Below are positions 31,601 to 34,009 of a stretch of 64,000 nt of DNA, in pieces; position 1 is the stretch's first letter; each line of letters opens with the position of its first letter. The position numbers are program-made. The DNA lies in the NCBI RefSeq assembly GCF_056712565.1, contig NZ_CM160072.1. One strand, 5' to 3'.

Positions 31601-34009
31601 TTTGGTCACGGTGAATTGCGTCTGGTGATTCTGGATATTCTCTCGCGCGATGACAGCCACGGTTACGAGTTGATTAAAGCGATTGAAAATCTGACCCAGG
31701 GGAATTACACCCCAAGCCCGGGCGTCATCTACCCGACGCTGGATTTTCTGCAGGAGCAGTCGCTGATTACCATCCGCGAAGAGGAAGGTGGTAAGAAGCA
31801 GATTGCGCTGACCGAACAGGGCGCGCAGTGGCTGGAAGAAAACCGCGAACAGGTGGAGATGATTGAAGAACGCATCAAAGCGCGTTGCGTTGGCGCGGCG
31901 CTACGCCAGAACCCGCAAATGAAGCGGGCGCTGGATAATTTTAAAGCGGTGCTGGATTTACGCGTCAACCAGAGCGATATCACTGATGCACAAATAAAAA
32001 AGATCATTGCGGTGATCGACCGCGCCGCTTTTGATATTACGCAACTGGATTAATCGCCGCATCCGCCAGTGGCGCGGTGCAATTGCCGGATGCGACGCTT
32101 GACGCGCCTTATCCGGCCTACACCCGCTACACACCCCGTAGGCCTGATAAGATGCGCCAGCATCGCATCAGGCATTGTGCTCCAACCGCTGGATCCGGCA
32201 TACCGATTAATGCAGCACCGTCACCGCGTCTTCCAGTCGGCTGGCGCGGTGTTTCACCATCGCCGACACCTGCGCACTCTCTTCCACTAACTCGGCGTTT
32301 TTCTGGGTGATGAGATTAAGCTCATCCACTGCACGGGTCAGGCTGGAAAGCCCATCGGCCTGTTCCAGCGTTGAATGGCTAATCTGAGCTATCAACTGGG
32401 TGACGTTTTTTACCTGCGCCACAATATCTTCCATCGTCCGTCCGGCGGCGTGTACCTGCTGCGAACCAGATTGCACCTTATCAGCACTGGCATCAATCAG
32501 CTTGCGAATATCGTTGGCAGCATTGGCGCTGCGGCTGGCTAAATGACGCACTTCCCCCGCCACCACTGCAAAACCTTTGCCCTGTTCGCCGGCACGCGCC
32601 GCTTCCACCGCCGCATTCAGGGCCAGAATATTGGTCTGAAACGCAATATCGTTAATCAGCGAAGTAATGGTGCCAATGCGCTGGGTACTGTCGGCAATAT
32701 CGTCCATTGTCTTGATCACCGTAGTCATCGCCTCCCCGCCCTGCACTGCCGCATTACTGGCGGTGATAGAAAGTTTATCGGCAGCCGACGCCGTGGCAGA
32801 GTTCTGTTTCACCGACGCCGCCATTTGGTTCATGGTCGCCACCGTTTGCTGAACGTTATCAACTGTCTGCTGGGTATGTTCGTTCAGTTCATCGGTGCCT
32901 TTCGCCAGCGTCTCACTGCCATTTCTGACACTGGACACCTGGCTTGAGACATCGTTAATTAGCCAACGGCACATCAGGCCAAGCTGCCCTACCGCGCGTA
33001 ATGTCAGCCCCAGCTCATCGCTGCGATTCAGATGCTCAACACTATTACGCTCTCCGGTCGCCACCTTCACTGCCTGACGGGCGACATTTTCTATCGGGCG
33101 GACAATCTGCCATTCAAAACAGGCGCTTGCCAACAATACCACTAACGCACAGAGGATATACGTCACCACCGGGGCAGCAACAAACCAAAGCATGACCGCC
33201 AGCAAGATAAACATCAGGGTCATCACGCCACGCGCCCGCCAGCGAAGCGGTAATGAAGGCAGTTTACCCAGCCAGCCTTTACGCACCACCAGGCCTTTAT
33301 GAATACGCTTACTGGTACGTCCGGCGTTCAACGCTTTGTACAGCGGCTCCACCGCCGCGATCTCTTCATCCGTCGCCCGGGTACGAATCGACATATAGCC
33401 ACTGATTTTTCCCTCGCGCACCATCGGTACCGCATTGGCCCGCACCCAATAATGGTCGCCATTTTTGCGGCGATTTTTCACGATGCCGCTCCAGGGCTCC
33501 CCTTTTTTCAGGGTGAACCACATATCCGCAAACGCCGCTTTTGGCATATCCGGGTGACGCACCATGTTGTGCGGTTGACCCTGTAACTCCTGCAAGGTAT
33601 AGCCGCTCACCTGCACAAAAGTGTCATTAGCATGAGTGATATAGCTTTGCAGATCGGTAGTGGACATCAGAGTGGTGTCGTCCGCCAGCGGGGTATTTTG
33701 CTGGGTGACATACGGATGAGAAGACATGTTCGCGTCCTGTGCAGGTTATATGGTTGTTAACTTCTTGTCAGAGTTTATGTCGGCCCCGCTGCGGTTATCT
33801 TTAACCAATTAATTTGATTTAGATCGCAATTTGCGATTAAAGCACAAATCTAATTCCTTGATTTAAAATACTTTCACTCTGTTACTATACGAAAACGTTA
33901 ATTATCTTGCCCAAAAATCAGGCAATTATTGCCCTGAAAGCGTGCATTTGCGCAGCAATCATCAAATCCATACCCGACAAAAACCGTGCAAAATAACAGC
34001 AAATGTTAG

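Follow-up and report, generated by a model that had tools for sequence, protein, structure and literature searches.

The spacer between aer and the divergent patA carries, close to the promoter of aer, a perfect palindrome, and the question raised by this locus is whether the palindrome is a regulatory element in its own right or a part of something already known. The whole stretch of DNA that was analyzed, 64 kb in length and referred to here as the window, is from Escherichia coli, and positions 33728-34144 are the aer–patA intergenic region (Table 1). This region is found in 5421 of the 5426 complete E. coli genomes, and the version in the window is 100% identical to that of E. coli ATCC 11775 and 97.4% identical to that of K-12. 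The alignment of the window with K-12 is gapless, and the addition of 3185349 to a window coordinate gives the coordinate in NC_000913.3. From -66 to +45, numbered from the aer transcript start, the sole difference between K-12 and the window is one base, at 33807; substitutions relative to K-12 are also found at 33839 and 33842, in the upstream alpha-CTD region. The window represents a B2-type strain, and its -35 and -10 elements, its CRP (cAMP receptor protein) 22-mer and its palindrome are identical in sequence to those of the aer promoter studied at the same locus of K-12 (PMC2859248; PMC4183435); no functional difference separates the two promoters.

Table 1. Features of the aer–patA region, in window coordinates
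Feature	Coordinates	Strand	Basis and remarks
aer CDS (aerotaxis receptor, 506 aa)	32207..33727	-	ORF list; RefSeq annotation of K-12 and of ATCC 11775, whose locus is identical; ATG at 33727
aer 5' untranslated leader, 44 nt	33728..33771	-	Published transcript start to ATG
aer transcript start (+1)	33771	-	Primer extension (PMC2859248), mapped arithmetically via CGA = -11 to -9 and T = -32
sigma-28 -10 octamer GCCGACAT (consensus GCCGATAA)	33777..33784	-	Sequence; published mutant and KMnO4; GCCGA invariant in 21 other loci
sigma-28 -35 octamer TAAAGATA (consensus TAAAGTTT)	33796..33803	-	Sequence; published point mutants; TAAAG invariant in 21 other loci
CRP site, 22-mer AATTGCGATCTAAATCAAATTA on the aer strand	33810..33831		Center at -49.5, between 33820 and 33821; published position and consensus match
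Palindrome ATCGCAATTTGCGAT	33823..33837		aer-proximal arm (33823-33829) contains the distal CRP half-site; patA-side arm (33831-33837) almost wholly outside the CRP 22-mer
Upstream alpha-CTD contact, approximate, A/T-rich, center at -68	33836..33841		FeBABE cuts at -64 and -72 = 33835 and 33843 (PMC2859248)
patA/ygjG, annotated start (TTG)	34145	divergent from aer	RefSeq annotation of ATCC 11775 and K-12

Direct reading of the minus strand gives TAAAGATA (33803-33796), followed after 11 nt by GCCGACATAA (33784-33775). Compared with the sigma-28 class 3 consensus, TAAAGATA-N11-GCCGACAT agrees at 6/8 positions in each of the two elements, and it is located 44-76 nt upstream of the ATG of aer, i.e., of a motility/chemotaxis gene. 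Moreover, the 64-kb window has two copies of the core TAAAG-N14-GCCGA, where shuffles predict 0.08. The initial annotation had assigned a sigma-28-type promoter to aer, and the assignment is borne out: the sequence is, letter for letter, that of the promoter studied by Hollands, Lee, Lloyd & Busby (2010, Mol Microbiol 75:1098; PMC2859248), who give it in their Table 1 as TAAAGATA-n11-GCCGACAT, and it is the experimentally defined, FliA-dependent and single promoter of aer. In that study, primer extension gave one product only, which places the start 6 bp past the -10 octamer; the replacement of CGA by GCT at -11 to -9 reduced the activity of the promoter from 223 to 12 Miller units, and point mutations in the -35 element, at -32, -30 and -28, reduced it 4- to 10-fold, to 23-50 units. 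In a ΔfliA mutant, the activity was 12 units. Purified E-sigma28, not E-sigma70, transcribes and melts the promoter in vitro, with melting detected by KMnO4 from -10 to +4 and with E-sigma28 only (Hollands et al., 2010). Fitzgerald et al. (2014; PMC4183435) also detected, by ChIP-seq, a FliA site upstream of aer, with the motif TAAAGATAACCGCAGCGGGGCCGACATA, and RNA-seq values for aer of 225 in the wild type and 12 in ΔfliA. Mapping of the aer transcript start in the wild type and in a fliA mutant, which had been proposed as a check on the promoter, has in effect already been published in these two studies, and the promoter itself, known base for base, is not new.

A single CRP site, centered at -49.5, has also been described at aer (Hollands et al., 2010), and the top match to the CRP consensus in the intergenic region, with 8/10 core bases, has its center at 33820.5, which is exactly -49.5. 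The cores read TGCGA-N6-TCAAA on the aer strand and TTTGA-N6-TCGCA on the other strand, the consensus being TGTGA-N6-TCACA. Because 20 CRP-like sites of 8/10 quality are present in the window, the assignment would be weak if made by sequence alone. EMSA of the aer200 fragment shows one CRP complex. According to its primers, which confirm that the CRP site includes GATCTAAATCAAATTA, this fragment extends from -91 to about +65 and takes in the whole palindrome. In a Δcrp mutant the promoter gives 53 units, even with FliA produced from a CRP-independent promoter, and the dependence of aer on CRP is separate from the effect of CRP on the levels of FliA. In vitro, CRP is needed for transcription at limiting polymerase, and shifting the CRP site by +/-5 (to -44.5 or -54.5) or to -41.5 results in the loss of activation. 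FeBABE cuts at aer are found at -72/-64 and at -38/-30 (Hollands et al., 2010). Published experiments have thus shown the FliA dependence of aer, its transcript start, the -10 and -35 elements, its dependence on and binding of CRP, the optimum at -49.5 and the positions of alpha-CTD. The promoter, the transcript start, the FliA dependence and the CRP site were settled in this way between 2007 and 2014, and finding them again has little biological consequence. A real sigma-28 promoter could be recovered from sequence alone; the overlap of the neighboring palindrome with the CRP site, however, had been missed.

The palindrome itself is present as initially described, a 15-bp perfect palindrome about 20 bp past the promoter. 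It begins 19 bp beyond the -35 element and spans -52 to -66, with its center at -59. Because the middle base of a 15-mer cannot self-complement, the symmetry of ATCGCAA-T-TTGCGAT is 7+1+7, a perfect dyad of two 7-bp arms and one central base. The view that its function is unknown is no longer tenable, because the aer-proximal arm, TTGCGAT on the aer strand, contains TGCGA, the distal half-site of the published CRP site at -49.5. The outer arm (-66 to -60) is located in the interval that separates the CRP site from the mapped upstream contact of alpha-CTD. CRP does not recognize the dyad as a unit; its 22-bp site is centered 9.5 bp from the center of the dyad. The palindrome had further been proposed as a regulator site for aer or patA. 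For aer this holds, in the sense that one arm is the distal CRP half-site; for patA it does not, as no link between the palindrome and this gene was found. In the main, then, the palindrome is accounted for by the published CRP site. Palindromes of the 7+1+7 type number 6 in the window, versus 4.4 +/- 1.7 in dinucleotide shuffles, and those with spacers of 0-4 number 32, versus 23 +/- 5 in shuffles. The class is present at chance frequency, and the palindrome is therefore real but statistically unremarkable on its own. In K-12, the dyad reaches 11/12 matching positions per arm, i.e., 25 bp with one mismatch.

The conservation of these elements was examined in 21 other Enterobacteriaceae aer loci, 18 of which came from a genome scan and three (E. 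fergusonii, C. amalonaticus and C. sedlakii) from exact-protein look-ups; Salmonella was not among the 80 loci listed by the genome scan, nor among the top 120 protein matches. TAAAG-N14-GCCGA is present in 21/21 of these loci, 69-82 nt upstream of the ATG and with a freely variable 11-nt spacer, and TG[C/T]GA-N6-TC is found, also in 21/21, at one ungapped register to the -35 element. Computed on the window and the 18 genome-scan loci, the information content is 1.87 bits per position for the CRP distal half-site, 1.83 for the -10 element, 1.76 for the -35 element and 0.74 for the promoter spacer; the palindrome arm outside the CRP site, with 0.53 bits per position, is the least conserved block. 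At the upstream alpha-CTD contact, TAAA(c)c is widely kept in the alignment of aer loci. Three of the loci, those of Cedecea neteri, Enterobacter sp. R1 and Enterobacter sp. Ag1, have no patA beside aer and keep the sigma-28 and CRP module, which therefore belongs to aer. What is added here to the published picture is that a CRP site at -49.5 and a sigma-28 promoter, an unusual combination, keep the same register in at least 21 further aer loci of the Enterobacteriaceae, and that constraint on the stretch from CRP to the upstream alpha-CTD contact is limited to E. coli and Citrobacter.

This last point concerns the outer arm. It is the same as in E. coli (6/6) in five Citrobacter species, matches at 5/6 positions in Pluralibacter and RIT691 and at 1-4/6 in ten other lineages, and in E. 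fergusonii it is removed by a deletion that starts precisely where the CRP 22-mer ends. Among E. coli and the five Citrobacter species, the 31 bp from 33811 to 33841, outer arm included, form the longest invariant run of the intergenic region; the six extra invariant columns have a p of ~0.02 under a crude independence model, with 53% of the columns invariant overall. Within E. coli, 5252 of the 5426 complete genomes have an exact copy of the 31-mer that spans the CRP site and the palindrome; the corresponding figures are 5288 for the 31-mer of the sigma-28 promoter and 1038 for the adjoining 31-mer.

We consider it very probable that the interval is the published aer regulatory module and that the dyad is not a separate element in need of its own explanation. 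RNA polymerase with FliA (sigma-28) recognizes TAAAGATA-N11-GCCGACAT and initiates at the mapped start, 44 nt ahead of the ATG. Alone, the promoter is weak; polymerase is brought to it by cAMP-CRP, which binds as a dimer to the 22-mer, at the unusual center of -49.5, and is flanked by two alpha-CTDs, docked at about -31 and -68. Of the two arms of the palindrome, the aer-proximal one is the distal CRP half-site, and the outer one, which probably has no independent role, is the 5-6 bp that separate the CRP site from the upstream contact of alpha-CTD, a chance mirror of the half-site in E. coli and Citrobacter. Two observations count against this reading, the invariance of the outer arm in E. 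coli and the five Citrobacter species, and the extension of the dyad to 11/12 positions in K-12.

Both observations would fit a dyad that is the operator of a second dimeric regulator in E. coli and Citrobacter, acting as a third input, by anti- or co-activation, beside FliA and CRP. Such an operator would share DNA with both the distal CRP half-site and the upstream alpha-CTD contact, so that a regulator bound to it would block or aid the CRP-dependent recruitment of E-sigma28, and a sigma-28 promoter thought to be under FliA and CRP alone would gain a third input. The perfect 7+1+7 symmetry is consistent with this possibility, as is the fact that the outer arm is invariant in these species while nearby non-functional positions diverge, and that the block is unchanged in 97% of the E. 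coli genomes. The outline of the palindrome, ATC-N9-GAT with a center near -59, presumably resembles the T-N11-A boxes of LysR-type regulators; however, no LysR-type gene is adjacent to the palindrome, and the arm is unconserved outside E. coli and Citrobacter. Neither aer nor the spacer is mentioned in the PdhR and LysR-regulator papers. The letters of the half-site (CGCAA/TTGCG) are also partly like those of LacI-family boxes. A comparison with the motifs of PurR, CytR, Fis, IHF and Nac led to no assignment, the spacing being 3 bp too short for the LacI type and the key positions failing for Fis and IHF.

Several lines of evidence argue against a second operator. Its symmetry class is no more frequent than expected by chance, as seen above, and the outer arm varies in 12 other Enterobacteriaceae lineages in which the CRP site is kept, besides being deleted in E. 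fergusonii. No intergenic relative of the palindrome with up to 3 mismatches is present in the window, and the string, searched in both orientations and as shorter cores, is absent from the searchable literature. The gSELEX/ChIP tables in that literature show no regulator peak on the palindrome; the spacer is entered in them only for the RpoD holoenzyme, in a table that gives predicted sigma-70 hexamers and flags H-NS. Moreover, purified CRP and E-sigma28 suffice for regulation in EMSA and in vitro transcription, with no extra factor (Hollands et al., 2010). A second operator thus seems unlikely, and we would give a similarly low chance to a lineage-specific role of the outer arm in general, be it through a second regulator or through a sequence preference of the CRP/alpha-CTD assembly. 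A second CRP site formed with the outer arm was considered as well and rejected, because a matching partner half-site is available only with a spacing of 5 bp (TGCGA-N5-GCACA) and because a single complex is seen by EMSA (Hollands et al., 2010).

Less likely still is that FNR, too, binds at the CRP site, so that the oxygen status would act directly on aer or patA through the same DNA. With the same center, 33820.5, the sequence matches TTGAT-N4-ATCAA at 8/10 positions, a perfect TTGAT included, and, according to Myers et al. (2013), FNR gives a ChIP-seq peak in the aer/ygjG spacer and ygjG is derepressed 7.6-fold in Δfnr. However, 40 sites of such quality are present in the window, and the FNR peak centers, 3,217,259 and 3,217,288 in U00096.2, convert to window positions 33888 and 33917, 67-97 bp from the CRP site on the patA side. 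The effect of FNR is attributed by the authors to ygjG, and an aerobic-only sigma-70 peak converts to a window position of about 33988; the FNR peaks and this sigma-70 peak concern patA. In any event, the idea bears on the CRP 22-mer and not on the palindrome. The known elements of patA (an NtrC-like site, a sigma-54 promoter and the FNR and sigma-70 ChIP peaks) are all found 50-270 bp further to the right. The assignment of patA to NtrC in an NtrC/Nac study does not fall on the palindrome, and a weak predicted NagC site, at about 33896-33918 of the window, is also off it.

That the palindrome is a nucleic-acid structure (a terminator, an RNA hairpin or a cruciform) is scarcely credible and was rejected: although the 31-nt stretch has, as single-stranded DNA, a folding energy of -7.3 kcal/mol (z = -4.8 versus shuffles), the palindrome precedes the sole mapped start of aer and is therefore not in the aer mRNA, it lacks a T-run and is not called by a terminator scan, it has no Rfam match even at E = 1, and its stem is only 6 bp because a 1-nt loop is sterically impossible. 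Nor are there compensatory changes, other species having simply lost the arm.

The preferred reading, that of the published module in which aer is controlled by FliA and CRP, can be set against known systems. The trg promoter of E. coli is the only other promoter with the CRP -49.5/sigma-28 design (Hollands et al., 2010); it is directly activated by CRP, and the spacing of its CRP site, -35 and -10 elements is as in aer (TGTGAcgcaaaGAGGT ... TAAGTAAT-N11-GCCGATGA). Unlike aer, however, trg lacks a mirror image of its distal CRP half-site, so that the palindrome cannot be counted among the traits of this class of promoters. The Class I (-61.5) and Class II (-41.5) CRP-dependent sigma-70 promoters share with aer the activator, the type of 22-bp site and the AR1-alpha-CTD geometry on either side of CRP, whereas aer differs from them in its holoenzyme, E-sigma28, and in the optimal position of CRP, -49.5.

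One strongly conserved element of the aer–patA spacer lies on the patA side. A perfect palindrome, unchanged in all 19 sequences of the Enterobacteriaceae alignment, is located immediately downstream of the patA sigma-54 promoter and, therefore, probably lies right at the 5' terminus of the patA transcript. Its conservation in this alignment far exceeds that of the palindrome at 33823-33837, which the initial annotation had proposed as a possible regulator site for aer or patA. The element near patA could act as a 5'-terminal stem-loop or as a protein site.

Upstream of the sigma-54 promoter, an NtrC-like site and two further blocks are also conserved (Table), and P. 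vulneris carries TGCACT-N5-GGTGCA at the position of the NtrC-like site; the published NtrC ChIP-seq peak falls, after coordinate conversion, at 34050-34130. Closer to aer, the block TCTAATTCCTTGATTTAAAATACTTTC is kept in most species in which patA is the neighbouring gene, and directly to its left about 14 bp are deleted in E. coli relative to the other species in the alignment. This block is close to predicted sigma-70 hexamers (RpoD gSELEX paper) and to an FNR ChIP peak at about 33888.

The start of patA has two possible positions. A mechanical ORF call begins at the ATG at 34034 and gives a protein of 496 aa, the coding sequence of which would overlap the sigma-54 promoter; RefSeq annotates a 459-aa protein that starts at the TTG at 34145. 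In the interval 34034-34144 both the promoter and GGAGCATATTTTGAACAGG are conserved, which supports the shorter form.

Coordinates of sequence features in the window
Feature	Sequence	Position	Strand	Location
Near-palindrome	CCAATTAATTtG	33805-33816		between aer -35 element and CRP site
Conserved block	TCTAATTCCTTGATTTAAAATACTTTC	33849-33875
NtrC-like site	TGCCCTGAAAGCGTGCA	among 33930-33946, 34018-34030, 34048-34065		patA side
Conserved blocks	ATTAAATATTG and GTGTTTATCCCGATTTT	same three intervals		between NtrC-like site and sigma-54 promoter
patA sigma-54 promoter	TGGCGC-N5-CTGCA	34083-34098
Perfect palindrome	GTATCA-TG-TGATAC	34111-34124		patA side of spacer
Second perfect sigma-28 core	TAAAGATC-N11-GCCGAGGA	41480-41503	-	antisense, within ygjI

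The near-palindrome CCAATTAATTtG, which falls in the downstream alpha-CTD contact region, contains a T/C-type polymorphism at 33807 between K-12 and the window strain, and is the target of an ISApl1 (IS30-like) insertion in the pig isolate E. coli 20Ec-P-124 (2413-3500 of locus L087, equivalent to about 33806-33808 of the window). The insertion separates the aer -35 element from the CRP site by about 1.1 kb; because this breaks the published spacing rules (PMC2859248), CRP activation of aer should be lost in this isolate. In E. fergusonii the middle of the spacer is missing (equivalent to about 33832-33906); this deletion begins precisely at the distal boundary of the CRP 22-mer, with the CRP site and the sigma-28 promoter both kept.

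As to the second sigma-28 core, found within the amino acid permease gene ygjI, no site is given there in the FliA ChIP-seq entries examined, in which aer is directly followed by yqjA (PMC4183435).

Elsewhere in the window, a palindromic motif, (A/T)GATATATCT, recurs in the nfeF(yqjH)–nfeR(yqjI) spacer, at 31179-31188, about 31249 and 31394-31411. One of its instances, AATTAGATATATCTAATT, is an 18-bp perfect palindrome. The motifs are presumably NfeR and/or Fur operators.
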